Part shown: positions 4,637-40,115 of the stretch, in pieces
Layout of the letters: each line of letters begins with the position of its first letter
Numbering within the stretch: position 1 is the first letter of the stretch
Sequence record: OL631484.1
Length of the DNA: 64,000 nucleotides
Strand: one strand, 5' to 3'
From: Escherichia phage ECML-606-1
Notes under the pieces: model-generated
Seen by the model: the letters and a program-made list of their open reading frames with translations, nothing else
What the model was told of the DNA's origin: nothing
Databases searched by the model: none
Translations under genes and position numbers: made by a program

Positions 4637-4898
4637 GTATGGCGTGAGCGATGTCAGATCGAGCGTAATGATGGCGTAGTCTCCTTAAATTAGGTGCCCC
4701 CCTTCTGGGAGGGGCGTGCAACCATTCGGCTACCCTTGCGGGCTGGTTGCTGCGTTCGCTGGCACAGTCACGCAGAGGCCCATCAGCCTCACCCTCAGTC
4801 AGCGTGAGGGAGGATTCCCCGGAGGCTCAACCTCCTCCAAGCCCCGGCGACTAGCGGGGAATGCACAGGTTTGCTTTCGCAATCGGAGCACCAAAAAC

Positions 4899-7498: not shown

Positions 7499-7574
7499 GA
7501 TTCTGTAGCTACAGCGGTAGAGCGGCGCACTGTTAATGCGCGGGTCGCTGGTTCGAATCCAGCCAGAATCGCCA
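7499..7574 (+). tRNA. tRNA-Asn (anticodon GTT)
   Basis: hand-folded 76-nt cloverleaf: acceptor GATTCTG/CAGAATC, anticodon stem GCGCA/TGCGC with loop CTGTTAA, T-loop TTCGAAT, encoded CCA. Confidence 0.9.
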
Positions 7575-15990: not shown

Positions 15991-18900
15991 TTATACGCTC
16001 GGCAGGATGATACATTCCACAACGGTCATGCCGCTGCCGCCAAAGCCATCGGCGTCCTTAGTCCCCGATTCGTTCACCTTAGTGATGAGTAGGCGGGTAT
16101 TAGGTGGCAGGATAATTTCTTTTTCCCCGGTATGGTGCGAGATAGATCCACCACTCGGAAGCGAGCCAGCGCCCGCATAGATACCTTTTACGCCGGGGCC
16201 TGCTGTCATTTTGAGGTGAATATTACCACTCCACACGTCTGGACTGATAGACGTGGACATAATTGCAGGCTCCATGATGACCTTGCCGACCGACGCTTTC
16301 AGCTTGGAGAGATCACCGCTGCCCAGACTGAATTTGCGCCCGAACGTGGTACCCGGCGAAATTTCATGGCCCATACCAGACAGCGCCTGCGCTGCTGCTT
16401 TCGCTTCTGCGCTTGGGTTGCCCTTCCACAGTCCGCTGTTCATCTGCTTATAACTGCTACCAGTATACGCCTGCACGGCCTGCTTTTGTGTCATCGGCAG
16501 CTTTTCCCACACTTCCTGTGCTGCTTTGGCATAAGTGTTTGTGGTCAGCGTGCCAGCCTTGAAAGTGGTTTTAGTAATGCCAAGGTCTTCCGGCTCAACA
16601 ATCCCCGGATGGCCCAGCACCAGCAGGTTCCCGATCTTGTCTGCATCGTTACCGCTCCAGTTTTCCGGCTTGTATTCTTCGTGCATCGAATACAGCGGGT
16701 GATCGCCGCCGATACGGAACTGCTCGGCTTCATGCCCGGTAAGCTGGCTCTTAATCTCGTTAATCGCCTGCATCGCGTAGCCTTTGATGTGCTGCGATGG
16801 GTGATCGAGCACTGGCACCTGTCCGGTAACAGCTCCGGTGTCTTTGTCAAAGGTTGGCGCGGTCAGGCCGCGAATGGCTTCCGGGTCTCCGGTCAGCGCC
16901 GCAGAATAAATGGCCTGCGCCGCGTCGTGGTTCCCTTTGTTCAGGAACTCTTTGGAGGACGGGCCGGATTTGCCAACGCCAGACCAGTTGAGGAAGTCAG
17001 GCGGGGTACTGATTTTCTCCGGCTTGAATTTCTGCATTTTGATGATCTGCTCGGCTTCCGGGTACTTCTCAGCCAGATACTCTTTGCGCTTGATGAGCGT
17101 TTCCACCAGCTCTTTTTTGGCCTTCTCATCGCCCGGCCCATACTGGTTGACCATGTGCGCGATTTTGGCGTCGGAGATAGCCAGCACCTTGGAGACAGAC
17201 GCGGCGATATCGGCCTCAGTCATGCCACCGAAGACGGCGGCGCTGTTCGCGTTCATCTTCGGATCCATCAGTGACTCCAGCTCCTTAACTACCGGGCCAA
17301 ATTCTTTCTTCGCACCCTGCGCACGGAACATCAGCGAGCCGCCCGCATCGACGCGGTGAATGGTGCCGTCATCTTTCAGCTGCACGTTGTCTTTCGCCAG
17401 CCCCACGACATCCCAGTTACCCAGCCACGCATCAACGGCAAAGCCTTCCAGCATACCCTTGGCCTTCGCCAGCGCTGCATGGGTTTTGGCCTTCTTGATG
17501 TTCTCCCACTTCGAGGCAATAGCCATTTTCCCGTCCTTGGTGACGATCATGGCGTCCTGCGCGGACAGGCCAGCGGCGCTATACAGTTTCGCTGCCAGCA
17601 CCTCAGCCTTGGCGTGCTCCTCGTTATCCGGGAACTTCACATACCATTCCTGCCCATCGGCGTCCTTCATTTTCATGCCTTCATTCGAACCGCCTTGGTT
17701 GCCCCCGGTCACTGTCCACTCATCGACGCTGATCGGCTCTTTCTTCTTCCACTGGTACTTTTTGACCTCCATCGGGCCATCAGCGGCAAGGCCATTCTCT
17801 GCCGGGTTGCTGGTCGCGGCGGTAGCATTCATCAGCTGCGCGACGCCATTCATAGCATAGGTGCCATTCACCTCAGGGTTATAACCGGACTTAACCTTGA
17901 TCCCATTAGCCATCAGCATCATCGACGCATATTGCGCCAGCGCCTTTTTACCCGGCGCGGTCGGGCCATACTCCGTTGAGACCTTAATTTTCATCCCAAA
18001 CTCGCCATAAATCAGCATCGAACCATCGGCTTTCTGCATGATGACGCCTTTGGTGCCGCCGCCTTTGGTCAGCTTGGCTTTGAGGTTATCTACATATTTC
18101 ATGTAGTGATCCTGCTGCCAAGCGCTCAGGCCAAGCGCAGCGAAGTCAGGTGCTGGGATCTCGTCAGGATTGGCCCTAACCCAGCGCCCGTTTTTCAGGA
18201 TCAGCATCCCATTGGCACCCGGCTTCATGTCGCCTTCTTTCGGGCCATCGCCTTCTTTCTGGCCCTCGTCGGCTTTCTTAGCATCTTCTTCGGCTACGGT
18301 GTTTTTGATAGCCGTCAGGATCCCTTCGATAGCCACAGGAGTAAAGTCGTTGATGATAAGCACGCTCTTAATGGTGCTGACCGCATCCACTTTGTCCGGG
18401 TTGGCGTCGTAGTATTCCTTGCACGCCACCGACGCCTTGACGACCTTTTGCAGCCCGGTTTTGGTCTCCGCGATGCTCTTGATGTCGTCCAGCAGTTTCA
18501 GGTCGATATTACCCAGCTCCGGCGCGGCAGGTTCAGGCGCAGGCGCAGGCTCCTCAGCTCCGGTGATCTGATCCTGTACAAAGGTCATGGTGCTGATCGC
18601 GTAATCCGTCATGCTCATCTTGACCACATCGGTGCCCTGATTCGCCATCAGCGCATACGCGGACTCTTTGACGCTGTTCAGCACGGCCTCTTTCATTTCC
18701 GGCGAGTCGGTGTACTTCGCCAGCATCGCCATCGCTGCCAGACCATCCAGCGCATCTGCATCCGCCATGCTATCGCCCTTGTAACTGGCTTTCGGGATCC
18801 CCTGCGGGACGCCGTGCATGTTGATGCTGTCTTTCAGTATGGACTGGAGGACAGGGATATGGGCCACGTTATCGCCTGCGGCCTTCACGATGTCCTGATA

Positions 18901-21900
18901 GGTGGCAGGGTTGTCGCCTTTCTTCGCCACGTAATCCTGTACAGCCATCAGCGTTTCGAGGTTGTCTTTGGCGTTGTTGAAGACCAGCCCAAGGTCATAC
19001 ATGTTTTTCGGCTTGCCCGGCGCAGCGGTCAGCTTGTCCAGCACCTCAGCCATGTACTCCTTGTACTTGGTACCGTTGATCGTGGTGCTCGGCGTCACGT
19101 TCTGCTCATATTTCATAGCCTCAATGAGCAGCTTTTTGCTGTTCTCATCCTTCGCCAGTGTTGCAGCGATGGCGTAGCCCTGAAAATCAGTTGCCTCGGT
19201 CGAGTAGAAACCAACGTCCGGCTTAATCGGCAGGTTGAGCGGCTTGCCATGCTTTTTGAAGTAAGCCTGACCGATTTCAGACGCAGCGTAGACGTGCCCG
19301 CTGTTCATTTTCAGGATATTGTCGATAACAGTCGTGTACGCGCCCTTATCGCCATGGTTATCCTTGATGAATTCCAGACCGATGCTGGTCGCATCATCGC
19401 CGTTCGCGCCAGCGAGGGCCTGTTTGAGCGCCACAATCTCGCTGCCCGCGCTGCCATTGGCTGAGGTCTCAGGCATATCCTGCTGTAAGATCCAGTGCCC
19501 ATTATGGAAGACCAGAATACCGCCTTTACCCTGCTTGGTATCACCTTCTTTCGGGCCATCCTCTACCAGCCACTTATTGACCTCCTGCTGGTACAGTTTA
19601 ACCTGCACAGCAGCTGGCTCTGAAAGGTGAAGCTCGCTCAGCTCATTAAAGTGCTTGGCGATCACATCAGGATCTGATTCTTTGCCTTTGTGAACTTCTT
19701 CGGCAATGACGTTATAGAGGGTCTGCACTTTCGTGCCATAGGTTTTCACCGTGTCGCTGGTTGGTGATACCAGCGGTTTTTCTGGCTCAGTCCCGTAAGT
19801 CTCACTCCACCACTTACCATAGGCTTTCTTGCCAGCGATAAAGAACTCATTCGCCAGCTCGTTAAACCCATTGTCCTTCATGGCCTCAGCCAGCACCACC
19901 AGCTGCGGCGCATCATGCCCATTCGCCGTCATCCAGTCGCCAGCAATCGCGTCGGCCTGTTTTTCGTCCTTGGCATCTGTCAGCGCATCAAAGGCGCTTT
20001 CCCACATGGCGTAATCATTCAGGATCGCTTTCTTCTCCTGCTTACGCTCATGTTTGGTGGCAATCTGCTCGGATTTCGCCGCAGCCTGAGACTTCTCGGC
20101 CCATGAATCGTACAGCTTCCCGACGCTGGACTCGGAGAAGGCCAGATCGCTACCGTAATAGGTAGACGCCTGCTCAATGAATGCCTCGCCTTTTGTCTTC
20201 GCCCACTCGTTGAACTCAGCCACATCGGCAAAATCCGGCAGCTGCGGCTCAGGGGTTGGCGCACGCTCCTGCTTGATCTGCGGTGGCGTCGGCAGGGATT
20301 TCACGGAGATATCGCCCAGCTCTTTCTTGGCGGCGGTCACGGCTTCGATGATCCACGCGGACAGATCAACCTTCTGGAAGGCATCAATCAGGTTCTGGTC
20401 ATCACGGATCACTGTCACCATGTCGTTGATGTTGTCCACAGCCAGCGCCCAGTTACCCGCGTTGAGGTCATTCTGGATGTCCTCACAGATGCCGTCGATA
20501 AACGCATCACCAGTCTGCGGAGGATTGGAGAAAGTCTTCACTCCCTCAGGCTTAGGCGCAGCAGCAAGGCCCAGAGACTCCGCCAGATTGACCGCAGGCT
20601 CTTTGCCAGCCATTACCTGCTGGTAAACCTCATTCTGCGTGTTGGAGAAGCCGGAGATATGGCCCCAGTCGCCCTTCTCGTTAACCCACATACCAGATCC
20701 CGGATTCTTCGGATCCGCGACGATGACTGCGCTGGTATTGGTCGGGTAAACGCCTGCGTCTGGAGTCGTGGACAGCACGCCATTCCACATGTTCTTGATG
20801 ACGTTTTGCTGCTTCTGGGTCAGGTGATTCGGCTTGCCCAGCTCCACCAGCTCGGTCGGGTACTCGCTATGGTGATAGTCGGAAATGTAGCCCAGATTGT
20901 CCGGGGTTTTGGTGTTGCCACCAAAGCCGATCAGTTTCAGGTACTGTCCCGCTTGGAACGGCTTAGCCAGCGGCTCACCCTTCTTGCTTATAGGCCATGC
21001 GGTCGCGTGCCCCATCAGCACTTTCAGGTACGGCTTACCGTCCTTGTCGTAGGTCTGGATGATTGAGCCTGCGGGCAGGTTCGGCATATCGGAGATCGAC
21101 AGCTTCTGGCCCTTTTTGAACTCACCAGCGACAGGCTGATCCTTGAGCGGCTCGCCAGTCTCCTGATTGTGCCAGCGACCGTCTTTGAAAACCTGCATCC
21201 CGTTTTTGCCCATGCGGGTATCACCTTCCTGCGGGCCTTCCTCAGCCCGGACGGTTTTCTGCTGCTCAACCTCTGCGCTGGCCTTCTGATCCTTTTCTGC
21301 CTGGCTAAACTGGCCCAGCATTGGATGCACGGCGTCTTTGCCGATAACCACTTTGATATCCGGGTAGCCCAGCGCTGCCAGCGCGTTATTCGCAGCCTTG
21401 GCGACTTTGAGCCCGTAGGTGTTTTTTCCGTATGTCATCGCCAGAATGCCGTTGATGTTGCCTACTTCGCCAGCGGCCTTGATAGCGGCGATCTGCGCGT
21501 TGTAGCTCTTGGCATTCTTAATGTTCTCCGCGACGGCGAACTGGCTCCAGTCGATAGCGTCCATGGCCTTCTTCGACACGGATGCTTTCGGGGCTGGCTT
21601 GCCTTCGGCGGTGTCCGGCTGCGCCGGGGAGGTAGCGATGATTTCAACCGCGCTCAATGGGCTCGGCTCCTCGGACTGCACCAGCGGCTTATTCGGATTC
21701 TCACCCGTCAGCAGCGCCAGCTTTTGCCCGTAGAGGTTCAGCAGCTTTTTGCTGTTCGGGGTGATGCCCTTCCAGCTTTTCGCCTTGCTCTTGATAGCTT
21801 CCAGCTCCGCCAGACTGGTGGCGTCGATGACCTTCTGAGCCTGCGCCTCATACGCGGTGCGCACGCCAGTGGAGTTTTTGCCGGATTCAAATTTAGGCAT

Positions 21901-22764
21901 GACGATTTCGCCTGGCTTCGGTGCTTCGGCAGCAGGTGTTGAGGCTTTCTGGACTTCTTCTTTAGCTGCGTTTTTTTTCTCAGGTGAAGGAGACGGCCCA
22001 TCTTTTGGCATAATAAGGCTTAGTTTTTTTGCTCCACCCGGTTCAGTTTTAAAGTATCCAAACTGCGTACCGTAATTCTCAATCGCGTGCAGCTGGTGCT
22101 GTTTTAAATCACCAATCTCAATAGTGATGACGTTATTTTTTACTTTGTATGCTTCAATCGGTGGCAGACCTAGGTAACTCTCAATTCCAGAAACAATGGC
22201 TTGTTGTTTGGCTGTCAAATTACCTGTAGCTGGTTTTGTTGCTGCCTTTGCCTCTTGCGCTACGGCTTCAATGGCCTGCTCAGCCATCTGATCGACGGTC
22301 TCAGGCTCTCTCTCGTATGTGGCGATGGCAGGGTGCTCACCCGCTTTCTGGCCCGCGCTGACCTTCTCCTGCGAGCCCATTTGCTCCAGCAGATAGTTGG
22401 CAATCGCCACCAGCTTTTTACCGTGGGTGTTCACGCCATAGGATGATCCCAGAATCGCCGCGATATCGCCGTTGGCAGCGTGCTGCAACAGGTTCGGGAC
22501 GTGTTTCTGGTTGAAATGCTTAATGTCTTTGTTGGTCGCCTCTTTCTCAGCAGGATAGAGCAGCTGGCTCGACTCCTCCTTAGGCATGGCGTAAGGCTTA
22601 TGGCCTTTGCCACCAGCTTTAGGGTGCGCGGCTTTCGGGGCGTTCTTGACGCCCTTCATGTCCGGCGTGGTTTTCTTCCAGCGCCCATTGATCAGAGCAT
22701 AGCCCGCTTGGTGGGCGAATTTTTGATTAAGTGCTTTTGCGAGGACAAGCATGGTGGCCACCAT
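15991..22764 (-). CDS. giant virion-associated protein with C-terminal ADP-ribosyltransferase-like domain
   Basis: 2257 aa; C-terminus has TFGRKF, IMSTSIS (STS) and GEKEIILPP (ExE); recurring internal motifs EGDTKxGxxGxxVFxNGRW and ILGSSYGVNTHG / ILAMTYGKNTYG. Confidence 0.65.
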   Translation of the reverse strand: MVATMLVLAKALNQKFAHQAGYALINGRWKKTTPDMKGVKNAPKAAHPKAGGKGHKPYAMPKEESSQLLYPAEKEATNKDIKHFNQKHVPNLLQHAANGDIAAILGSSYGVNTHGKKLVAIANYLLEQMGSQEKVSAGQKAGEHPAIATYEREPETVDQMAEQAIEAVAQEAKAATKPATGNLTAKQQAIVSGIESYLGLPPIEAYKVKNNVITIEIGDLKQHQLHAIENYGTQFGYFKTEPGGAKKLSLIMPKDGPSPSPEKKNAAKEEVQKASTPAAEAPKPGEIVMPKFESGKNSTGVRTAYEAQAQKVIDATSLAELEAIKSKAKSWKGITPNSKKLLNLYGQKLALLTGENPNKPLVQSEEPSPLSAVEIIATSPAQPDTAEGKPAPKASVSKKAMDAIDWSQFAVAENIKNAKSYNAQIAAIKAAGEVGNINGILAMTYGKNTYGLKVAKAANNALAALGYPDIKVVIGKDAVHPMLGQFSQAEKDQKASAEVEQQKTVRAEEGPQEGDTRMGKNGMQVFKDGRWHNQETGEPLKDQPVAGEFKKGQKLSISDMPNLPAGSIIQTYDKDGKPYLKVLMGHATAWPISKKGEPLAKPFQAGQYLKLIGFGGNTKTPDNLGYISDYHHSEYPTELVELGKPNHLTQKQQNVIKNMWNGVLSTTPDAGVYPTNTSAVIVADPKNPGSGMWVNEKGDWGHISGFSNTQNEVYQQVMAGKEPAVNLAESLGLAAAPKPEGVKTFSNPPQTGDAFIDGICEDIQNDLNAGNWALAVDNINDMVTVIRDDQNLIDAFQKVDLSAWIIEAVTAAKKELGDISVKSLPTPPQIKQERAPTPEPQLPDFADVAEFNEWAKTKGEAFIEQASTYYGSDLAFSESSVGKLYDSWAEKSQAAAKSEQIATKHERKQEKKAILNDYAMWESAFDALTDAKDEKQADAIAGDWMTANGHDAPQLVVLAEAMKDNGFNELANEFFIAGKKAYGKWWSETYGTEPEKPLVSPTSDTVKTYGTKVQTLYNVIAEEVHKGKESDPDVIAKHFNELSELHLSEPAAVQVKLYQQEVNKWLVEDGPKEGDTKQGKGGILVFHNGHWILQQDMPETSANGSAGSEIVALKQALAGANGDDATSIGLEFIKDNHGDKGAYTTVIDNILKMNSGHVYAASEIGQAYFKKHGKPLNLPIKPDVGFYSTEATDFQGYAIAATLAKDENSKKLLIEAMKYEQNVTPSTTINGTKYKEYMAEVLDKLTAAPGKPKNMYDLGLVFNNAKDNLETLMAVQDYVAKKGDNPATYQDIVKAAGDNVAHIPVLQSILKDSINMHGVPQGIPKASYKGDSMADADALDGLAAMAMLAKYTDSPEMKEAVLNSVKESAYALMANQGTDVVKMSMTDYAISTMTFVQDQITGAEEPAPAPEPAAPELGNIDLKLLDDIKSIAETKTGLQKVVKASVACKEYYDANPDKVDAVSTIKSVLIINDFTPVAIEGILTAIKNTVAEEDAKKADEGQKEGDGPKEGDMKPGANGMLILKNGRWVRANPDEIPAPDFAALGLSAWQQDHYMKYVDNLKAKLTKGGGTKGVIMQKADGSMLIYGEFGMKIKVSTEYGPTAPGKKALAQYASMMLMANGIKVKSGYNPEVNGTYAMNGVAQLMNATAATSNPAENGLAADGPMEVKKYQWKKKEPISVDEWTVTGGNQGGSNEGMKMKDADGQEWYVKFPDNEEHAKAEVLAAKLYSAAGLSAQDAMIVTKDGKMAIASKWENIKKAKTHAALAKAKGMLEGFAVDAWLGNWDVVGLAKDNVQLKDDGTIHRVDAGGSLMFRAQGAKKEFGPVVKELESLMDPKMNANSAAVFGGMTEADIAASVSKVLAISDAKIAHMVNQYGPGDEKAKKELVETLIKRKEYLAEKYPEAEQIIKMQKFKPEKISTPPDFLNWSGVGKSGPSSKEFLNKGNHDAAQAIYSAALTGDPEAIRGLTAPTFDKDTGAVTGQVPVLDHPSQHIKGYAMQAINEIKSQLTGHEAEQFRIGGDHPLYSMHEEYKPENWSGNDADKIGNLLVLGHPGIVEPEDLGITKTTFKAGTLTTNTYAKAAQEVWEKLPMTQKQAVQAYTGSSYKQMNSGLWKGNPSAEAKAAAQALSGMGHEISPGTTFGRKFSLGSGDLSKLKASVGKVIMEPAIMSTSISPDVWSGNIHLKMTAGPGVKGIYAGAGSLPSGGSISHHTGEKEIILPPNTRLLITKVNESGTKDADGFGGSGMTVVECIILPSV

Positions 22765-25688: not shown

Positions 25689-26127
25689 CCTGCTCCTTTG
25701 CTGGTTCGCGCAGGGCACGGGCGTAATGCTCCGCGCGGGCGCAGATGTTGTTCATGCTGCTGCGCTCTTTGTCGAGCCAGTCAGCCTTGAATGCCGCCTT
25801 TTCTCCATCAGGCAGGACGCTCAGGGCTTTCTCATATGCCCGGCGCTCAGCCATGCTACCGATCAGGAATGACTCGAATACCTCAGCCAGCGCCTCTTTG
25901 TCGCACTGTTCAAAGGATTCTCCGACCGTTTTACCGAAGGTATTCTGGAAAAACTCCTCGGTGCCGCCAAACAGGAACAGCGGGACTTTGCGCGGCTCAG
26001 TCTCGGCATCGAGCTCAGTCGCGCCATATTGACCGCCCATGATGCCCACGGCGATAGCCGCAAGCTCATGCGTCGGCGCTTTAAAGGTGATTTTGTCTGA
26101 CGGGTTGATCAGCTCCCAGAGGATCAT
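25675..26127 (-). CDS. hypothetical protein
   Basis: ATG at 26127 with GAGGAG SD, ATGA overlap with upstream gene. Confidence 0.4.
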   Translation of the reverse strand: MILWELINPSDKITFKAPTHELAAIAVGIMGGQYGATELDAETEPRKVPLFLFGGTEEFFQNTFGKTVGESFEQCDKEALAEVFESFLIGSMAERRAYEKALSVLPDGEKAAFKADWLDKERSSMNNICARAEHYARALREPAKEQDDGE

Positions 26128-26420
26128 GATGCTGACTCCTCTTTTGGTTTGCCTTCGAATTTCTTGCCGCAGAATGGGCAATAATTCATCGTCATAAACG
26201 AACTGCCATCAGTGCAGCGCTGGGCCAGCGAGCCATCTTTCTTGCGCTTGAGAAAGCGGAAGGTGTAAGGCACGGTGACGCTGGAGTGGTCGCCCTCAGC
26301 CAGGACAAACACGCTGTTTGTCCAGTTGGCTTCTTCGATCTCTCCAATTTGATCGCCAAAGCGCTTGGTCAGGTGCTCTTTGAACTGAGCTCCCAGCTTT
26401 TTGAAACAATCACAGGCCAT
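26124..26420 (-). CDS. small zinc-ribbon protein
   Basis: 98 aa with CDCF...CPFCGKKF Cys pairs; ATG at 26420. Confidence 0.4.
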   Translation of the reverse strand: MACDCFKKLGAQFKEHLTKRFGDQIGEIEEANWTNSVFVLAEGDHSSVTVPYTFRFLKRKKDGSLAQRCTDGSSFMTMNYCPFCGKKFEGKPKEESAS

Positions 26421-28501: not shown

Positions 28502-28531
28502 AAAAAAAGTCCTCCGCTTGTGGGGAGGACT
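28502..28531 (-). terminator. hairpin plus U-run carrying SD of downstream gene
   Basis: AGUCCUCC-loop-GGAGGACU then U7 then ATG. Confidence 0.45.
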
Positions 28532-28558
28532 TTAGCGCGTTATCTTTTTTGACGCAAG

Positions 28559-28587
28559 AATTATTTACGGCATACGTGACGCATCAA
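28559..28587 (-). promoter_or_regulatory. sigma70-like promoter TTGATG-N17-ATAATT with CGTCACGTATGCCG element in spacer
   Basis: minus-strand hexamers; overlaps stop codon of methyltransferase gene. Confidence 0.35.
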
Positions 28588-30095
28588 AAGGCATCGTCAT
28601 CTTCATCAGGATCCGGCAGGTGCCGATCCTCGGTCTCCTCCGGGAATTCCTCTCCGGTGTAGAAGTGGACGGCCTTACGCCCGGTCAGGTTCTGCCAGCG
28701 ACGAATCGCCACATCAGCAAAGCCCAGATCGAGCTCCATCACGCGTGCGCATACGCCCATTCGCTCGGCGGCCACCAGTGAAGTACCAGAGCCGGAGAAG
28801 GGATCCACCATGATGTCATTCAGGCGCACGGTGTTCTTCATCATGCGCTCCCACAGCTCCACGGGCTTCTGCGTCGGGTGCAGGTCGCTGCGGTCAGGAC
28901 GCGGCACGCTGACCACGCTGCCCAGCATTGACTCCACCTTGGCGTCGCCTTCCACCCGCATGATGAGATCGCCGTACTGGAAATACCAGTTACCCTCGGC
29001 ATCCTGTTTGAATGGGCTTGAGTCGCCAAACTCCGCGACGGTCGTTTGCTTCCTGCCACCGTGCCAGCGGTGCTTGGCACCCTTGCGCCAGCCGTACAGG
29101 ATTGGTTCATGGATGCTTTGGAAGTCAGCCATGCCCAGTGTCATGCTGTTCTTCTTCCAGATGACATTCTGGGAGAAGTGGAAACCGACCTTTTCAAACG
29201 CCCAGCGCAGGCCATGGGCCATCTTGTCGGAGTGGCTGATATAGGTCACGCCGCCCGGCTGCATCGCGTCATAGGCGCAGCTCAGGACATTGACGAGGAA
29301 CTGATTAAAGTCCTCCTCGTTTTTCCAGTCGTTAGCGATCCCGCCAGTGCGCGAGCGCTCGCCTCCGATGGCCTTATCCATGCGCTTATTCTTCTTGCCC
29401 ACATCGACGTTATACGGGGGATCGGTCAGCATCATGTTGGCCTTCTCGCCCTGCATCAGCGCCAGCCAGCTTTCCGGCTGCTCAGCATCGCCAACATACA
29501 GGCGATGAGCGCCCAGCACCCACAAGTCGCCCGGACGGCTCTTTGGCTCGTCAGGAAGCGGTGGCGCATCATCGGGATCGCTGTCACCTCCTCCTCCCTC
29601 CATCGGCGGCAGCTTCATGATCTCGTCCAGCTGCTCAGGGTCGAAGCCGATAACATCCAGATCGTAGTCCAGATCAGCCAGGGCATTCATTTCGATGCGC
29701 AGCATGTCCATGTTCCACTCGGACGCCCGGCCCAGCTGGTTATCCGCGATGATGTACGCGCGGCGCTTAGCCTCATCCCAGCCAGTGCAGTCCAGCGTCG
29801 GCACCATGCCAATAGGGATCGGTGTGCCATCCGGGAAAGCAATTTGCTTGCCCTCGCTGTACAGCTTCATCGCTGCCAGCTGGCGTCCATGGCCTGCCAC
29901 AATCCCTTGCTCATCGACGAGGATGGCGTTAGTCCACCCGAATTCAAGCATTGACGCGGCGACCTTCTGGACGTGCGCCGGGCTATGGTCGTTTGAGTTG
30001 TTCACGTAGGGGATGAGGCTATCAACCGGGCGCAGCCGGATCATCGGGGGGATCACGTCCAGCCCCAACATCTTGTTAAAATCTTTATCAGCCAC
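28584..30095 (-). CDS. DNA methyltransferase with N-terminal ParB-like nuclease domain
   Basis: ParB/Srx-like VAGHGRQLAA; methyltransferase motif IV LTDPPYNV before motif I VDPFSGSGTS (beta-class N6A/N4C order). Confidence 0.7.
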   Translation of the reverse strand: MADKDFNKMLGLDVIPPMIRLRPVDSLIPYVNNSNDHSPAHVQKVAASMLEFGWTNAILVDEQGIVAGHGRQLAAMKLYSEGKQIAFPDGTPIPIGMVPTLDCTGWDEAKRRAYIIADNQLGRASEWNMDMLRIEMNALADLDYDLDVIGFDPEQLDEIMKLPPMEGGGGDSDPDDAPPLPDEPKSRPGDLWVLGAHRLYVGDAEQPESWLALMQGEKANMMLTDPPYNVDVGKKNKRMDKAIGGERSRTGGIANDWKNEEDFNQFLVNVLSCAYDAMQPGGVTYISHSDKMAHGLRWAFEKVGFHFSQNVIWKKNSMTLGMADFQSIHEPILYGWRKGAKHRWHGGRKQTTVAEFGDSSPFKQDAEGNWYFQYGDLIMRVEGDAKVESMLGSVVSVPRPDRSDLHPTQKPVELWERMMKNTVRLNDIMVDPFSGSGTSLVAAERMGVCARVMELDLGFADVAIRRWQNLTGRKAVHFYTGEEFPEETEDRHLPDPDEDDDAF

Positions 30096-30630
30096 GTTCG
30101 ATCACCACTCTAATGTTGGTTTCATTGCCATTGCCCTTATCCAGCCCCCACGCCTTACGCTCCCCGTTCTGGGTATTGGTCAGCGTTTCGGAGGTGATTT
30201 TGGCGAGTTTAGCCAGATCAAAGTTTTTGTCTTTGATGGCCTGATAGGCGAGGGTGCGCGGGTAGTCCCATTCCTTCTGGTGCTTCTCCAGCAGGTTGGC
30301 GCGAGCCAGCGCAGCGAACTCGGCGGTAATCTCATCCGCCAGCGCGTTGAGCTCGTCCTCAGTGACTACGCCCAGTTTGGCCCGGCGCTTCTTGAACTCC
30401 TCCAGCGCCTCTTTGCTCATCCCGCTCAGGTTGGGATCCTGCTTGCACCAGCCCTCCACGCGGACTTTGCCAGAAATGGTGTCAGGCGCTACGTTAAATT
30501 CCTTGGCGAGAAGCGACGGCGTGGCTTCCGGGTCACTCTCGTAACGGATCCGCAGTGCCGTCCATGCCTCTGCCGACAGCTTGACGCGAGGCTTACGCCC
30601 CGTGGCTTTTGTCTTGCGTGGCGTCACCAT
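30088..30630 (-). CDS. putative DNA-binding protein (HTH-like)
   Basis: 180 aa, basic N-terminus, LAKEFNVAPDTIS helix-turn-helix-like segment. Confidence 0.35.
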   Translation of the reverse strand: MVTPRKTKATGRKPRVKLSAEAWTALRIRYESDPEATPSLLAKEFNVAPDTISGKVRVEGWCKQDPNLSGMSKEALEEFKKRRAKLGVVTEDELNALADEITAEFAALARANLLEKHQKEWDYPRTLAYQAIKDKNFDLAKLAKITSETLTNTQNGERKAWGLDKGNGNETNIRVVIERG

Positions 30631-30789
30631 GATTTCCTCCTTTAGCGCCGTCCTTGGCGCGGGTGTTAATGACTGGTTTCCTGACGTTTCTTTTCCTCTG
30701 CGGTGCAGAGGTCAAGCAGCGTCTGCGAGTGGGCAGCGAAAGACTGCGCCAGCGTTGAGAGGCTGTTTCTCAGGTTGTGCATGTTGCGA

Positions 30790-31194
30790 TCATCGGCCTG
30801 CACGGCTACATGCGTCAGATGAGCAGCGGTGTTTGCACTGTCCTTTGCCAGCTCCAGCAGGCTTGGGATCGGTGTGAACATCGAACAATTCAGCATCGAG
30901 GTTTCGGACATTTGGGGTCTCCTTGCGGACGAATAACTGGTGGAATCGTGCGGGCTGCAACAGGAGTGTGCCGCCTCGCGGTGCGGTAACGAGGTATTGC
31001 CCGGCCTGCGGGCGCATCAGGGTGGCCCACTCAGGATTCACTACCAGCGGCGCGATATCCTCATGGAACACGATGACCATGCCTGCGGTCGGGTGCAATT
31101 TCATATCCCGGATGCGGTGCGCTGTCACCATGGGCAGCTGGTACGGCACGCGGGGGCGATAATGGCTCAGGCCAAACGGGCTATTCTTCTGCAT
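30790..31194 (-). CDS. hypothetical protein
   Basis: 134 aa, ATG at 31194; overlaps a second small ORF (30666-30911), only one may be real. Confidence 0.3.
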   Translation of the reverse strand: MQKNSPFGLSHYRPRVPYQLPMVTAHRIRDMKLHPTAGMVIVFHEDIAPLVVNPEWATLMRPQAGQYLVTAPRGGTLLLQPARFHQLFVRKETPNVRNLDAELFDVHTDPKPAGAGKGQCKHRCSSDACSRAGR

Positions 31195-31582
31195 GACTTC
31201 CTACCCATCCAAACGGGGTTTTCACATAGCCAGCCGCAATCATGGAGGCGTCTGACAGCTCTTTGAGGCGGGCGTACAGCTCCGGCGCTTTCCCATCCGC
31301 GTTTCGCTTTCCGCGCTCGTACAGCAGGCAGAGATCTTCCCACTCATCCAGATAAGGCGCGATGCGCGGGCAGTTGGCTTTCATCTGCGGGAAGTAACCG
31401 CGCAGCTCAGGCACGGCTTTGATGAGGCGATAGCAGCGACCGAAGTCACTGGCATCATGCGGGATGTCGCCACCTTTCAGCGGGCGCAGGGCGGCTTTCA
31501 GCATGGTTTTCGATGATGCCCCGGTGTCGCTGCTCAGCGACCACTCCAGCATTTTAAACATCATATCGACGGGCATGGTCAT
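31181..31582 (-). CDS. hypothetical protein
   Basis: 133 aa ORF in gene chain. Confidence 0.4.
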   Translation of the reverse strand: MTMPVDMMFKMLEWSLSSDTGASSKTMLKAALRPLKGGDIPHDASDFGRCYRLIKAVPELRGYFPQMKANCPRIAPYLDEWEDLCLLYERGKRNADGKAPELYARLKELSDASMIAAGYVKTPFGWVGSHAEE

Positions 31583-31878
31583 GCGCCGGGCCCTCCAGCA
31601 ACGTGACGCGCCGGGCCATCCTCAGGCCATCCGCCATCAACGGGCGCTGGAATGGCTTTCGGGTATTGTACGGTGTCATTGTCATCGCGCAGGCAGGAGA
31701 TCGCCCGGTTGTTCGCTGTCCAGCAGGTTACGCCCAGCTCGCTGTCATGGATTCTGGTAATGACACTGGAGAGCACCTTTACGTTTGCGCGGGTACTATC
31801 CTCGGCAGGGTTCTGATCGTAGCAGGAGGCGACCAGAAACGGCACCAGCGCGGCGATCAGCAGTTTGGCCTTCATCAT
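31579..31878 (-). CDS. putative lipoprotein
   Basis: signal peptide MMKAKLLIAALVPFLVASC with lipobox-like LVASC. Confidence 0.5.
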   Translation of the reverse strand: MMKAKLLIAALVPFLVASCYDQNPAEDSTRANVKVLSSVITRIHDSELGVTCWTANNRAISCLRDDNDTVQYPKAIPAPVDGGWPEDGPARHVAGGPGA

Positions 31879-31950
31879 TGGGTTGTCCTTGTTAAAAAGC
31901 GCTCAGAGAGCGTCTGAGCGCGTTATGGTTGATTCTATTCTTTTTTGCGA

Positions 31951-32823
31951 CTACTCGCCAGAGCTAGGGCAGACGTGAACCGAATCACTGGCGTAGCACA
32001 GCAGGCATTTCGGGCAGTGCATCACATGGGATGTCTTATGGCTAACCAATGGCACCGCGCAGGTGTGAGGTGTCCCTGCTTGGTAAACAGCTCCACAGTG
32101 CTTGCAGCTTTCTGTGTGAACTGATCCCTGCCAGTGTTGCAGGTTGTTGTTTGGGTTCCACGGGCTCTTTGGATCCTTCCAGTCGAATGGCGTAACGAAC
32201 TCGCCGGGGCGCAGCTCAACAGCGTTTTTCGGTGCCTGATTTCCCCAGCTATCCCATCCCGGATAAGCGTCGCGCGCGAACAGCTCAATGCGCGGCACAT
32301 CGCCGTATAGCTCCTCGATGCGGTGGAAAATCTCTTTCGGCTTCTGGGAGTGCTCGCCCAGACAGGAGAAGATGATCTGGCGCACGCCGTTACTGACGCG
32401 CTCCAGACCTTTCCCGCGCACGGCGATCAGGCAGTCCTCGGAGTTGGCCCGGCTGTAGTTGCCACCGTTGATTTTTACCTCGGAATTCAGGAAGTCCAGC
32501 ATGTCCTCCCAGTCGAAGAATTCCGACTTGTCCAGCTTGCGGTTGAAGCGCTCCCCAGCGTTCTTGTTGAACTTCACCCACGTAAAGCCCTTCATGGTGC
32601 GCACATCGAAGCCCCACGCCTCAGCCAGCGCGATAGCCTCCTGCGCGTGGGTGGAGGTGTACCACATAATCAGCACAGCATCGTCATCAGCCAGCGACCA
32701 GACCGGGAGGCGCTTGATGTCCTCTTTCTTCATGGTCAGGTAGTGGTTTTCAGCGGCACCGTTGCTGATTGTGTTGTCGTAGTGCCATGGCGGATCAGCC
32801 AGGATAACTTTGTACTTAGCCAT
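31951..32823 (-). CDS. MT-A70-like adenine methyltransferase
   Basis: N-terminal ILADPPWHY (DPPW) motif; Cys-rich C-terminus. Confidence 0.6.
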   Translation of the reverse strand: MAKYKVILADPPWHYDNTISNGAAENHYLTMKKEDIKRLPVWSLADDDAVLIMWYTSTHAQEAIALAEAWGFDVRTMKGFTWVKFNKNAGERFNRKLDKSEFFDWEDMLDFLNSEVKINGGNYSRANSEDCLIAVRGKGLERVSNGVRQIIFSCLGEHSQKPKEIFHRIEELYGDVPRIELFARDAYPGWDSWGNQAPKNAVELRPGEFVTPFDWKDPKSPWNPNNNLQHWQGSVHTESCKHCGAVYQAGTPHTCAVPLVSHKTSHVMHCPKCLLCYASDSVHVCPSSGE

Positions 32824-33379
32824 GAGGCTTCTCCTGATTGGTGGCGTCCAGCGCGATTTCCAGCGCTGCCATTGTTTCTTGCTTGGTCATATCCCCACGC
32901 TTCCCGGTGAAGACGGCAAGCACGTTATGCGCAGCCTCGCGCAGGTTATCGACGTATGTCACCAGCGAGCCCCCCTCAGGGATGCCGCACTCCTCGACCA
33001 GCTGATAATAAATATCACCAGCGGCGCGGTAAGCTGTTTGCCCGGTGCCCGGATTAATCAGCAGCTCCTCACGCAGAGCATCGCGCTCGCGGTTGGTTCT
33101 GCCCAGCACGGCGATCAGGCGGGCCAGCTCTTTATCCTTCTCGGACAGCTTCACTTCCTGCTGTTCCAGCAGCGTGGTCAGCTCAGCGTTGGCGTCGCGC
33201 TGGCTGTCCACTTCGCCGGGGCTCATTCTGCCCAGCTGGGAGAGCAGGCCAGCGACCTCGCCACGGGTGAGCACCAAACAGTTAACATTGGCGTTATGCA
33301 GTCGCACCAGTGATTTGAACTGCTGGAGCAGGGTTTTGTAATCGCCTGCTGGTTCAGGGTTAAATTCGACGATAGCCAT
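32816..33379 (-). CDS. hypothetical protein
   Basis: 187 aa, coiled-coil-like middle. Confidence 0.4.
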   Translation of the reverse strand: MAIVEFNPEPAGDYKTLLQQFKSLVRLHNANVNCLVLTRGEVAGLLSQLGRMSPGEVDSQRDANAELTTLLEQQEVKLSEKDKELARLIAVLGRTNRERDALREELLINPGTGQTAYRAAGDIYYQLVEECGIPEGGSLVTYVDNLREAAHNVLAVFTGKRGDMTKQETMAALEIALDATNQEKPHG

Positions 33380-33381
33380 GG

Positions 33382-33858
33382 TTAATCCTTGAAAAAAGTT
33401 ACCCAGTGGGTGTTGGCCCGGATGCCGGACGGATGACCAAAGGCGGGCTTCATTTCCGCCAGTTTAAGCAGCTCGCGGGTTGGCACATGCAGCTCATTCC
33501 ACTTGAAGATCAGCGTGCCGTGTGGCTTGAGCACGCGCCATGCCTCAGCGAATCCGGCGCGGATGTCCTCGCGCCATGTCTTTTTGTTCAGGATGCCGTA
33601 CTTCTTGCCCTGCCAGCCATTAGGGCCGCACTTGAGCAGATGAGGCGGGTCGAACACGATGAGGCTAAACGTGGCGTCGGCAAACGGCAGCGCCCGGAAG
33701 TCAGCCACGATGTCGGGATGGATTTTCAGCTCCCGGTCATCGCATAAGATATGCTCCTCGTCCCTGATATCCATGAAGACGACGCGAGGATCCTCCCGGT
33801 CGAACCAAAACATGCGCGAACCGCAGCACATGTCGAGAATGGGTTTGTTAGTGGTCAT
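33382..33858 (-). CDS. putative SAM-dependent DNA methyltransferase
   Basis: ILDMCCGSRMF (motif I-like) and LIVFDPPHLL (DPPH). Confidence 0.5.
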   Translation of the reverse strand: MTTNKPILDMCCGSRMFWFDREDPRVVFMDIRDEEHILCDDRELKIHPDIVADFRALPFADATFSLIVFDPPHLLKCGPNGWQGKKYGILNKKTWREDIRAGFAEAWRVLKPHGTLIFKWNELHVPTRELLKLAEMKPAFGHPSGIRANTHWVTFFKD

Positions 33859-38771: not shown

Positions 38772-40067
38772 TTACCAGCCGTAAGACACGCCAGCGCCGA
38801 TCACAAAGTTATGCTGGGTGTCGTTGGACACGGACGCCTTCACAACGGTGTTCTGAGAGGCGCGGGCAGAGAAGCCCACAGCCAGCGCAGACTCACCATC
38901 AGTGTTACCAGCACCAGCGCCGATAGCAAAGGTCTGGTGCTCCAGTACCTGCGGGATGTTAGCCATGGCGGCGACGCCTGCGATACCAGCCGACGCACGT
39001 TTGCGGTTGTCATCGATCTGTTTGTTCAGGTCGGCAAACTTGCTATTGGTCTGCGATTCCAGCCCCTGAATGCGCTGCTCATGGTTGGCAATATCGGCGG
39101 TGTTCTGGGCTACGCGCTTATTGGTCGCATCCAGAGCCTGACGGTTCGCCTCAGAGTGGGCATATGCCGAATCAGCGCGAGACTGCGCATACGCGCCAGT
39201 GTCCTGCGCCTGCTTCACGCCAGCGCTCAGCGTGGTGAACTGGCTTGAGCGGGTGGAGGTCTCAGCCGCCAGAGCAGCATCCTGACGCTTCTGATCATCG
39301 CTAAACACGCTGGTGGTCACACGGTCGTTAACCTGAGCCTGCAAATCAGCATCAGCGGCTTTGCGGTCGTTGGTTTCGTTGGTGATAGCCACGCCGTTAT
39401 TCACCACGCCAGCCAGTGCCGCATCGGATTTGGTGTTGCTTTCGGTGATCGCGGTGTCTTGACGGGCCTGATCCGCTACAAAGTCAGTCGCATTGACTTT
39501 GGTCGCCAGACCAGCATCCAGCTCCGGCTTGGTGGCAAAGGTTCCAGCCTTAGTTTGCAGGTCGATGATGGCAGAGCCATTGGTGGCTACGCCTGCCAGT
39601 GCGGCATCCGCTTTATCACTATTCGTGGAGATCAGCGCATCCTGATCGTTGTCGCGGACTGCCTGCGCAGCCTTATCGGCATCATACGCGGTCTGGTCAA
39701 CCTTATCAGCCAGGCCATTCAGTGCCGCCTGCGCATCGGTCTTGGCAGAGCCAGCCATATCCAGCGCGGAGCTCGCTTCCTGCTGCGCGGCATCCGCTTT
39801 CTGGTCAACGGCGATCACACCCAGCTTGGTGCTTTGCAGGTCGGCATCCACACTGGTGATGCGGTCGCCCAGTTGAGTATCGCGGGTCTCAGAGTCCAGT
39901 TTGTTCTGGGTGATTTGGTTCTGGTGATCGTTGATCAGGTCGCTGGTTACATTTGCGCGGGCGTCCTGAATGCGGTCGTATGCAGACGGGGACGGCGCAG
40001 CGATTGCAACAGAAGCGGTGGAGGTCAGTGCCAGTGCCAGTGCGATTTTGGTCAGTTTCATCATCAT
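38772..40067 (-). CDS. YadA/Eib-like trimeric autotransporter adhesin
   Basis: signal peptide MKLTKIALALALTSTASVAIA, coiled-coil stalk, C-terminal anchor ...GIAGVAAMANIPQ...FVIGAGVSYGW; start among ATGs 40061-40067. Confidence 0.65.
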   Translation of the reverse strand: MMMKLTKIALALALTSTASVAIAAPSPSAYDRIQDARANVTSDLINDHQNQITQNKLDSETRDTQLGDRITSVDADLQSTKLGVIAVDQKADAAQQEASSALDMAGSAKTDAQAALNGLADKVDQTAYDADKAAQAVRDNDQDALISTNSDKADAALAGVATNGSAIIDLQTKAGTFATKPELDAGLATKVNATDFVADQARQDTAITESNTKSDAALAGVVNNGVAITNETNDRKAADADLQAQVNDRVTTSVFSDDQKRQDAALAAETSTRSSQFTTLSAGVKQAQDTGAYAQSRADSAYAHSEANRQALDATNKRVAQNTADIANHEQRIQGLESQTNSKFADLNKQIDDNRKRASAGIAGVAAMANIPQVLEHQTFAIGAGAGNTDGESALAVGFSARASQNTVVKASVSNDTQHNFVIGAGVSYGW

Positions 40068-40115
40068 TATCTCGTTAAGTACCATTTAAAGGGGTTTTGT
40101 GTTGGAACGAGGCTA

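Follow-up and report, generated by a model that had tools for sequence, protein, structure and literature searches.

Orphan DNA methyltransferases (MTases) in phages, the presence of several of them in one genome, fusions of ParB-like domains to MTases and the avoidance of restriction sites all have precedents. In the 'ParB-Tls locus', as summarised in a passage of PMC6536676 that cites Iyer et al. (2013), ParB-MTase fusions are always found upstream of the terminase genes, extra MTases accumulate, and ParB is proposed to direct modification during packaging; the same passage describes such fusions as the most numerous subgroup of the amino-MTases in Paracoccus prophages. A survey of 2025 likewise reported that fusions of the ParB fold with N6N4 MTases are enriched in phages and prophages (PMC12704722). 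Here we describe a locus of Escherichia phage ECML-606-1 (sequence record OL631484.1), of which a stretch of 64,000 nucleotides, referred to below as the window, was analysed. Three MTase genes are clustered in it, one of them coding for a ParB-MTase fusion, and their arrangement is that of the already documented ParB-terminase DNA-modification locus.

The open reading frames (ORFs) of the ParB-MTase fusion (28584-30095, minus strand; 503 amino acids (aa), GTG start), of an MT-A70 enzyme (31951-32823, minus strand; 290 aa) and of a minimal enzyme (33382-33858, minus strand; 158 aa) coincide exactly with those listed in a first-pass annotation of the same DNA. Its statement that three distinct MTase genes lie together is confirmed by the ORFs, the families and the catalytic motifs, and the fusion of one of them to a ParB-like domain by PHROG matches and intermediate sequences. 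The motif IV tetrapeptides are DPPY (29412-29423), DPPW (32785-32796) and DPPH (33640-33651), and a six-frame scan of the 64 kb window found (D/N/S)PP(Y/F/W/H) in no other plausible gene. The REBASE-derived MTase_II models of PADLOC match the fusion at 9e-99, the MT-A70 enzyme at 1.2e-57 and the minimal enzyme at 2.4e-68, and matches to PADLOC DNA-MTase models run end to end on all three proteins. Residues responsible for catalysis and for the binding of S-adenosylmethionine (SAM) are invariant or nearly so in alignments of 40 fusion, 17 MT-A70 and 32 minimal-enzyme homologues.

No match to a nuclease or restriction endonuclease (REase) model was found in the 17 ORFs between 25.7 and 37.5 kb or in 10 larger ORFs elsewhere in the window, which makes the three MTases orphans; the earlier remark that no cognate endonuclease can be recognised holds for every ORF scanned. 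The adjacent cognate endonuclease that characterises a Type II restriction-modification (RM) system is absent beside all three among the ORFs at 25.7-37.5 kb. The sole match to an RM model in the window falls on the motor part of a superfamily 2 (SF2) helicase of 576 aa (61348-63078, minus strand; Pfam ResIII, 5e-25), 28 kb from the MTases. As a hidden restriction partner this protein was rejected: only SF2 helicase motor matches were obtained, the PADLOC models of Type IV methyl-directed REases (mREase_IV) covering the motor region at 7e-37 with their nuclease parts unmatched, and the gene adjoins the primase gene in the replication module. It is a replication helicase, not a restriction subunit. 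The three MTase genes are intact as judged from their sequences, and are predicted to encode distinct, orphan MTases of the DNA type.

The fusion comprises an N-terminal ParB/Srx domain and a beta-class MTase domain of the N6_N4 type (aa ~190-475; 28671-29528, minus strand). The latter matches PF01555 (N6_N4_Mtase) over aa 220-459 at 3.2e-28, with 99.6 bits against a gathering score of 26.7, and phrog_498 is matched at 1e-129. Motif IV (DPPY, aa 225-228) is followed by a low-confidence putative target recognition domain (TRD, aa ~320-400) and then by motif I (FSGSG, aa 433-437); D225, P226, P227, G435, S436 and G437 are invariant in the 40 aligned homologues. Database searches returned 7134 homologues at E<=1e-10, and 277 phage records in which the match spans 80% or more of the query. 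An AlphaFold2 model of the protein has a mean pLDDT of 74.8, with about 80-90 in the N-terminal domain. Its best Foldseek matches are CcrM (6pbd, 3.5e-14), the rotifer N4-cytosine MTase (8s9o), M.BceJIV (8urk), M1.HpyAVI (5hfj) and M.MboIIA (1g60), and M.RsrI and M.PvuII are also among the matches. Like CcrM, M.BceJIV, M1.HpyAVI and M.MboIIA, the fusion has the IV-TRD-I order and the same fold (Foldseek ~1e-14 to 1e-10), and it is probably an obligate dimer, as are the solved beta-class MTases. However, it is only ~20% identical to these enzymes, lacks the C-terminal domain of CcrM and carries the additional ParB domain. Because identity is so low and the NCBIfam equivalog scores lie far under the cut-offs (62 against 830 for CcrM, 55 against 292 for YhdJ), the specificities of CcrM and YhdJ are not transferable to the fusion. 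A further likeness is to M.EcoGII, a non-specific adenine MTase of a prophage, which is likewise an orphan DPPY enzyme of the beta class, borne by a phage and presumed to overcome many restriction systems at once, although M.EcoGII consists of 349 aa without the extra domain present in the fusion.

The ParB/Srx domain occupies aa ~19-160 of the fusion (29616-30041, minus strand). Several PHROG 'ParB-like' families match residues 19-180, the best being phrog_620 (1.8e-36). Pfam ParB_N (PF02195) gave no match at E<=0.1 in the isolated N-terminal domain or in any of the 40 aligned full-length homologues, and the sequence profile of the fusion family did not reach solved ParB structures, its PDB matches being MTases only. 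In a Foldseek search of PDB with the full-length model, the MTase domain filled the list, and all of the top 50 matches are MTases. The link to ParB is made through intermediate sequences. In tblastn, the N-terminal domain alone matches plasmid proteins named 'ParB/Srx family N-terminal domain-containing' with 31-37% identity (E to 2e-23, ~87% coverage), two of which score 30.7 and 28.6 bits on PF02195 against a gathering score of 26.3; one of these ParB_N-passing proteins is aligned to the window domain by BLASTP at 3e-17, with GHGR..AA and ADN conserved. In the 40 fusion homologues AGHGR (A67, G68, H69, G70, R71) and ADN (A117, D118, N119) are invariant. We take AGHGR to occupy the position of the ParB P-motif/Box II (GERR) and ADN that of Box III (ENLQR), so that the invariant residues presumably correspond to the two motifs of ParB CTPases for phosphate binding and for Mg/hydrolysis. 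A family-specific insertion of 15 aa (aa ~80-95) is probably the reason why Pfam ParB_N misses the domain. Via the intermediate sequences it is thus assigned as a genuine ParB/Srx domain, and this Pfam-invisible variant with an insertion is a small new point. The canonical traits of a partition ParB, a parS-binding helix-turn-helix (HTH) domain and a ParA family partner, were not found in the fusion or its neighbours, and the ParB domain is followed not by a C-terminal dimerisation domain but by an acidic linker and the MTase; the fusion is not a ParB of a partition (ParABS) system.

The window belongs to a myovirus of Enterobacterales with a genome of ~95 kb. Among deposited phages it is closest to Enterobacter phage phiT5282EW (95.5 kb, 94-97% identity), all genes of which are annotated as 'hypothetical', and more distant relatives are ~90-95 kb myoviruses of Yersinia, Aeromonas, Bordetella and Pseudomonas. 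Yersinia phage fHe-Yen8-01, on which no paper was found in the literature, has the same three MTases in the same order in a syntenic block, with 71-74% aa identity. No near-identical DNA was present in the plasmid collection, and no homologue of the 'anti-restriction protein' of fHe-Yen8-01 was found in the window by tblastn. The MTase orthologues of fHe-Yen8-01 are annotated 'phage particle associated'. Since its primase bears the same label, as does a DNA-binding protein, the label is weak evidence, and the idea of virion-associated MTases, after the manner of DarB of phage P1, was down-weighted. Homologues of the ParB-MTase with ~50% identity were also observed on contigs of 92-101 kb, several of them from NCBI assemblies of Salmonella enterica and E. 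coli isolates, which indicates that phages of this group travel with cultured isolates, whether in a carrier state, as phage-plasmids or as contamination.

Immediately upstream of the fusion lies a gene (30088-30630, minus strand) for a protein of 180 aa resembling the terminase small subunit (TerS), the stop of which overlaps the fusion start by 8 nucleotides (nt); the two genes are predicted to be translationally coupled. The PHROG family phrog_1206, 'terminase small subunit', matches four of the five TerS-like orthologues (best 5.2e-10), and the N-terminus gives weak HTH matches in PDB. An orthologue directly precedes the ParB-MTase gene in the Yersinia phage, in ~98 kb Salmonella contigs, in a 94 kb metagenomic contig and in Pseudomonas phage Dolphis. 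Throughout the phage group this pair is retained as the core, and the MTases around it differ: the MT-A70 and minimal enzymes in the window and the Yersinia phage, a C5 cytosine MTase in the Salmonella contigs, Dam, two C5-type enzymes (one a faint match) and a second N6_N4 enzyme in the metagenomic relative, and two other MTases besides the ParB-MTase in Dolphis. The MT-A70 and minimal DPPH enzymes represent cargo specific to the lineage, of a kind that enterobacterial prophages also carry.

As in the ParB-Tls locus (Iyer et al. 2013, as cited in the passage of PMC6536676; PMC12704722; PHROG 498), an orphan ParB-DPPY fusion is located upstream of co-oriented terminase genes, and extra MTases cluster around the fusion in relatives of the window phage. 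The gene of the large terminase subunit (TerL), a gpA-like ATPase (8300-10915, minus strand; PF05876 GpA_ATPase, 3.2e-22), is on the same strand as the ParB-MTase gene and 17.7 kb downstream. No recognisable TerS gene adjoins it, its upstream neighbour coding for a tail-fibre-like protein with a Peptidase_S74 domain. All three MTase genes stand in one array of same-strand genes that continues into those for virion and packaging. Unlike the described locus, the window has a ParB domain that bears the 15-aa insertion and falls under Pfam ParB_N, an interval between fusion and TerL that holds a giant ADP-ribosyltransferase-domain protein and tail-fibre genes, and two extra MTases upstream of the fusion rather than between it and TerL; in the Salmonella and metagenomic relatives the C5 and N6_N4 MTases are downstream of the fusion. 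The coupled TerS-like gene is a further difference, and this overlapping partner is a small new point.

Two observations concern the same region in relatives. Downstream of the ParB-MTase gene, Dolphis has a segment (31196-33884 in L009) with a MazEF toxin-antitoxin pair and with a PAPS-reductase gene joined in one operon to a further DNA MTase gene, which is further evidence for an island of DNA modification and conflict downstream of the ParB fusion. In Salmonella relatives (L006:5103-5438 and L007:3601-3936), the gene located two genes upstream of the ParB-MTase codes for a 111-aa product with a weak Acb2/Tad1-hairpin match, a family of anti-CBASS/Thoeris sponges, which hints at other counter-defence genes in the Salmonella island.

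The MT-A70 enzyme consists of a core (aa 1 to ~205) and a C-terminal tail (aa 205-290; 31954-32211, minus strand) delimited by the alignment of long and short forms. The protein matches PF05063 at 1.7e-29 (103.4 bits against a gathering score of 23.9), phrog_359 at 7e-90, and solved MT-A70 proteins and METTL3 chains; D10, P11, P12 and W13 of motif IV (aa 10-13) are invariant in the 17 homologues aligned out of 617 retrieved. Over ~205 residues the core is 60-65% identical to MT-A70 MTases of enterobacterial prophages (HK639, Klebsiella, Stx2a), which belong to PHROG 359 and share the DPPW motif. Unlike them, the window enzyme ends in ~85 aa made up of a conserved linker, PFDWKDP..NPNNNL.HW, and two CxxC...HxC motifs similar to zinc knuckles, from which we infer a putative zinc-binding function of the tail. 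When the tail was searched exhaustively against 1.84 billion representative proteins, 4 matches were obtained, the three real ones being MT-A70 enzymes. Besides the window enzyme, no more than a handful of related phage enzymes were seen to have this tail, the remaining MT-A70 homologues having a different C-terminal module or none, and a zinc-knuckle tail on an MT-A70 enzyme is a rare feature and a small new point. A separate module was observed in enterobacterial prophages, where an MT-A70 enzyme (P0195/P0234, 283 aa) and a minimal MTase (P0109, 248 aa) have a common C-terminal stretch of ~65 aa reading ..WPAEV.MVFS...H.INRMWLEK.P.P.I..; its presence on two unrelated MTase families suggests a shared accessory or adaptor tail.

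Comparison with phiT5282EW shows that the nucleotide identity of 96% in the flanks falls to 88% in the MT-A70 core and 81.7% in the neighbouring 187-aa gene. The tail-coding segment has no counterpart in phiT5282EW, where an HNH/endonuclease-VII-like ORF fills the slot. This ORF of 82 aa (25939-26187, minus strand, in L001; window ~31964-32260) matches phrog_3322 at 5e-19 and Pfam HNH at 5.6e-4, just under the cut-off, and has ...IDRIIP... where HNH proteins usually show DH; it is possibly a degenerate homing endonuclease. The dip in identity, the swapped tail and the HNH-like ORF together mark the MT-A70 locus as a recombination (mosaic) joint. The 187-aa gene (32816-33379, minus strand) lies between the genes of the minimal and MT-A70 enzymes, with a gap of 2 nt upstream and an 8-nt overlap with the MT-A70 gene downstream, consistent with translational coupling. 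Its product matches phrog_8364, a family of unknown function, at 2.7e-13, and has no Pfam or PADLOC match; the gene has no conserved counterpart in the Yersinia relative, where four small ORFs take its place.

The minimal enzyme is a class-I amino-MTase without a TRD, matching phrog_954 at 2.9e-78; its PADLOC matches are MTase_II PDLC03288, to which the value given above refers, and oMTase PDLC03730 (1.6e-49), and Pfam yielded only weak Methyltransf_11/25 matches. The motifs are in a gamma-like order, with motif I (LDMCCGS, aa 8-14) ahead of motif IV (DPPH, aa 70-73); P71, P72 and H73 are invariant and D70 nearly so in the 32 homologues aligned. Of the 7564 homologues retrieved at E<=1e-5, most are named 'class I SAM-dependent methyltransferase'. 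One source names the homologue P0069, 67-68% identical to the window enzyme, M.NgoMXV, and according to a review M.NgoMXV and its homologues are unusual gamma-class enzymes that make N4-methylcytosine (PMC3874165). The window enzyme resembles minimal gamma MTases of the M.NgoMXV type (PHROG 954) in its size (~160 aa), motif order, DPPH motif, lack of a TRD and location in phages or prophages, a likeness that rests on the name which that source gives to P0069. It may accordingly methylate cytosine at N4 rather than adenine, which we treat as a lead. The AlphaFold2 model has a pLDDT of 90, and its nearest solved folds are generic amino-MTases (E ~1e-5), namely Trm11, Bud23, N6AMT1/KMT9 and nucleomethylin, whereas M.TaqI comes at rank 43; sequence, profile and fold searches turned up no close solved DNA MTase.

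The genome bears the imprint of very strong Type II restriction pressure. In counts over the 64 kb window compared with Markov expectations, 21 of the 64 hexamer palindromes are absent and five more nearly so. Examples (observed/expected) are CCCGGG (0/43), GGCGCC (0/34), GCCGGC (0/31) and CTGCAG (0/31) among the former, and CCGCGG (1/36) and GCGCGC (2/46) among the latter; palindromic hexamers in total number 562 against 1121 expected. Among well-expected hexamers, 18 of 49 palindromes are missing, compared with 3 of 1655 non-palindromic word pairs (Fisher p = 7e-27). The loss extends to degenerate sites (CCWGG, 29 against 233; GGWCC, 1 against 94), to every RCCGGY and CYCGRG form and the YGGCCR forms, and to the non-palindromes CTCTTC, CTGAAG, CGTCTC and CACGAG. 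We take the depleted sites to be those of Cfr10I, AvaI/Eco88I, EaeI/CfrI, EarI, Eco57I, Esp3I, BssSI, EcoRII and AvaII/Eco47I, many of which presumably come from Enterobacteriaceae; CATCTC and TATTAA are also depleted and were matched to no enzyme site. All 4-bp palindromes except CTAG are spared at or near expectation, with GATC normal, as are GANTC, GAATTC, GATATC, GGATCC, GTTAAC, AGCGCT, CAGCTG and others.

The extreme selective loss was noted for the whole window (1-64000) and also for L001 (phiT5282EW) and L002+L003. The Yersinia relative has most of the purge, has additionally lost CAGCTG, GAGCTC, GGTACC and GGGCCC, and keeps ACCGGT, ATGCAT and ATCGAT; these specific losses and exceptions indicate that the purge is ongoing and host-specific. 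Phages are known to avoid restriction sites, and the virulent phages T7, N4 and T5-like have been described as losing nearly all Type II sites, a passive means of countering restriction (Rusinov et al. 2018, as cited in a passage of PMC8594841). In contrast to that avoidance, the purge in the window coexists with three MTases and takes in 5-bp degenerate as well as Type IIS-type sites; sister lineages with different hosts have different purges, and EcoRI and EcoRV sites are spared. An unusually complete, lineage-specific purge alongside MTases is a small new point.

Two simple relationships between MTases and purge were tried and rejected. That more MTases mean less purge is contradicted by Dolphis, which has three MTases and almost no purge, while the window has three and is heavily purged. 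MTase specificities could not be read from the spared sites, where the pattern is inconsistent (GACGTC is purged, whereas GAATTC, GATATC and GAGCTC are spared) and a reading would be over-interpretation.

The explanation that we favour, with moderate confidence, is that the MTases modify progeny phage DNA against restriction, the ParB-MTase and TerS-like protein forming the core, the other MTases a variable cargo, and the physical removal of sites the other half of the strategy. The three enzymes would be made in the middle-to-late phase and would methylate progeny DNA before or during packaging, and the restriction enzymes of the next host would then fail to cut at the covered motifs. The ParB domain would be a dimerising or nucleoside triphosphate (NTP)-binding module, keeping the MTase on phage DNA or activating it there, perhaps in concert with the TerS-like protein, and would not act as a nuclease. 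Coverage by the MTases would probably be confined to a limited number of the motifs left unpurged (4-bp sites, GANTC, GAATTC, GATATC and the like). Protection from restriction is the role commonly presumed for phage MTases (PMC5778455). The first-pass annotation had proposed self-methylation at multiple specificities as an anti-restriction strategy; self-methylation against restriction is retained as the most reasonable role, in view of the restriction imprint in the genome and of MTase sets that vary among relatives, whereas multi-specificity methylation is, in view of the site purge, not the main anti-restriction device visible in this phage.

Several observations weigh against modification of progeny DNA for protection. 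None of the three MTases has a characterised close homologue, so their activity and specificity are predictions, and the phrog_1206 match of the window copy of the TerS-like protein is weak (9.8e-4). The timing of expression rests only on gene order and consensus terminator matches. The nearest solved folds of the minimal enzyme are MTases of RNA, proteins and small molecules, and its DNA substrate therefore rests on the REBASE-derived and PHROG models. According to a passage of PMC8594841, the MTase genes of phages in the BASEL collection showed no simple relation to resistance to restriction. Many of the purged sites contain adenine (AAGCTT, CTGCAG, AGTACT, GCATGC), which argues against blanket protection of the M.EcoGII type by any of the three MTases, since the purge would then be redundant, and the survival of the spared sites may mean no more than that host enzymes do not target them. 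Almost no purge is seen in Dolphis and in the metagenomic relative, which has five MTases, and comparison with the window indicates that the intensity of the purge tracks host lineage and not MTase number. One pattern speaks for protection: among the enterobacterial members, only the Salmonella contigs with a C5 MTase keep CCWGG (45/66), GGWCC (13/19) and GCGCGC (18/17.5), other palindromes staying absent there, and the same three sites are purged in the two phages without a C5 MTase. That the C5 MTase explains their retention is no more than suggested, and the pattern comes from fragments of 12-13.5 kb and is confounded by host.

Other explanations attach to particular parts of the locus. Dam methylation controls the pac site of phage P1, and by this parallel the TerS-like protein and the ParB-MTase could be a packaging-initiation or timing device, with methylation marking DNA for replication, transcription or packaging. 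The conserved coupling of the two genes across the group and the lack of another TerS candidate beside TerL agree with such a role, as do the systematic position of ParB-MTase fusions upstream of terminase genes, described in the passage of PMC6536676, and the suggestion that phage MTases mimicking host regulatory specificity (CcrM-mimicking) matter for replication (PMC5537653). It nevertheless appears rather unlikely as the explanation of the locus, because the two additional MTases and the variable cargo of the relatives are left unexplained, TerL is 17.7 kb away and the TerS assignment is weak; it is also not mutually exclusive with protection. A more elaborate version, in which the TerS-like protein recognises phage DNA, the ParB domain closes as an NTP-gated clamp, and the tethered MTase methylates processively while the DNA is being fed to the terminase, confining methylation to phage genomes, is distinctly unlikely. 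The same applies to its variant, in which the ParB-MTase and the zinc-knuckle MT-A70 enzyme would be carried in the virion and act on the incoming genome, as the annotation of the Yersinia phage hints. A role of the ParB domain as a nuclease or nickase that cuts or nicks host DNA, or phage DNA at a specific site, the fused MTase protecting its own DNA in a single-chain RM-like or host-degrading system, is extremely unlikely. PF02195 was formerly named 'ParB-like nuclease domain', and PHROG labels such as 'partition nuclease' and 'nuclease' (phrog_15396, 4.4e-29; phrog_940, 5.4e-10) point the same way, but the current Pfam name is 'ParB N-terminal domain', and the 'nuclease' label in the first-pass annotation repeats the old family name and is not an observation. 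The invariant residues that we equate with motifs of ParB CTPases also speak against cleavage, as does PADLOC, where the match to the Type II MTase model PDLC03229 starts at residue 23 and spans the ParB region, and where no REase or REase-MTase fusion model occurs among the 25 matches listed. For the fold itself the literature describes not a nuclease but an NTP-binding switch (PMC12704722) or an activator, a ParB-like protein being needed to activate a phage DNA T-dioxygenase, with stabilisation on DNA suggested (2026; PMC13229309); the nicking activity formerly suggested for the domain finds no support.

The targets of the enzymes might also be other than phage DNA. M.EcoGII methylates DNA and RNA in any context, relatives of MT-A70 act on RNA and single-stranded DNA, and Trm11, Bud23, N6AMT1/KMT9 and nucleomethylin are the nearest folds of the minimal enzyme; promiscuous adenine methylation of host DNA or RNA in the course of host takeover, or methylation of rRNA, tRNA or protein by the minimal enzyme, could follow from these affinities. 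Against this, REBASE-derived DNA-MTase models match all three proteins end to end, the DNA-modification island and the context of the orthologues point to DNA, and nothing here indicates host targeting, so that we regard such activity as very unlikely. It is scarcely probable, too, that the MTases are mobile 'morons' which recombination or homing endonucleases have brought in as hitch-hikers and which have little function here, being neutral or inactive. The mosaic joint at the MT-A70 gene, with identities of 88% and 82% between flanks of 96%, its swapped tail and the HNH-like ORF of phiT5282EW are what mobile cargo would leave, and some phage MTases are inactive in a heterologous host (PMC5537653); however, the catalytic motifs are invariant, the frames are intact, and the same three genes occur in order in phages that are only ~72% identical in these proteins.

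Outside the MTase genes, two terminator-like hairpins with T-runs were located by a consensus scan, by position only: a GC-rich one (31899-31921, minus strand), 30 nt after the MT-A70 stop, and another (28506-28533, minus strand), 51 nt after the ParB-MTase stop. The scan was not enriched over shuffles (17 against 11.2 +/- 3.7). A transcription unit from ~35.4 kb through the minimal and MT-A70 genes probably ends at the first hairpin, and the positions of both suggest two successive transcription units, each ending in an MTase gene. The second unit starts with a 99-aa ORF (31579-31878, minus strand), the product of which begins MMKAKLLIAALVPFLVASC, a signal of the lipoprotein type that includes a lipobox cysteine; the product may be a lipoprotein that excludes superinfection or blocks a receptor.

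The giant protein between the fusion and TerL is encoded by a 2257-aa ORF (15991-22764, minus strand), in which the sole recognisable domain is a C-terminal ADP-ribosyltransferase (PF03496, 4.8e-9, aa 2152-2233). Its orthologues in Dolphis and fHe-Yen8-01 bear the annotation ADP-ribosyltransferase (toxin), that of fHe-Yen8-01 with the particle-associated label as well, and the product is possibly an injected effector. A 437-aa ORF (38772-40085, minus strand) codes for a protein with a YadA-like trimeric-autotransporter anchor (PF03895, 2e-12) that matches phrog_17426, 'adhesin', at 2e-60. In the Salmonella relatives (L006:1276-3585 and 3803-4876) the gene of a 769-aa YadA-anchor protein is followed by a porin gene (Porin_1/Porin_4); the YadA-anchor and porin genes are predicted to encode outer-membrane proteins carried by the phage. 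The only tRNA gene, tRNA-Asn (GTT) at 7499-7574 on the plus strand, is opposite in orientation to its neighbours and is conserved in phiT5282EW.

The finding is mostly confirmatory, since phages with several MTases and ParB-MTase fusions near packaging genes have already been documented. Its value is that of a test system, with a fixed core of TerS-like protein and ParB-MTase and a swappable MTase cargo, in which sister lineages have purged different, host-specific sets of sites and which could show how phages divide the task between site erasure and methylation. Three large uncharacterised MTase families are represented at one locus, with 7134 ParB-fusion, 7564 minimal-enzyme and 617 MT-A70 homologues. 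The TerS-like/ParB-MTase pair offers a convenient entry to the role of the ParB fold in DNA-modifying enzymes, and if either the packaging-coupled or the virion-carried mechanism were true, unlikely as both are, it would be the first mechanistic account of a ParB fold 'directing' a DNA methyltransferase.

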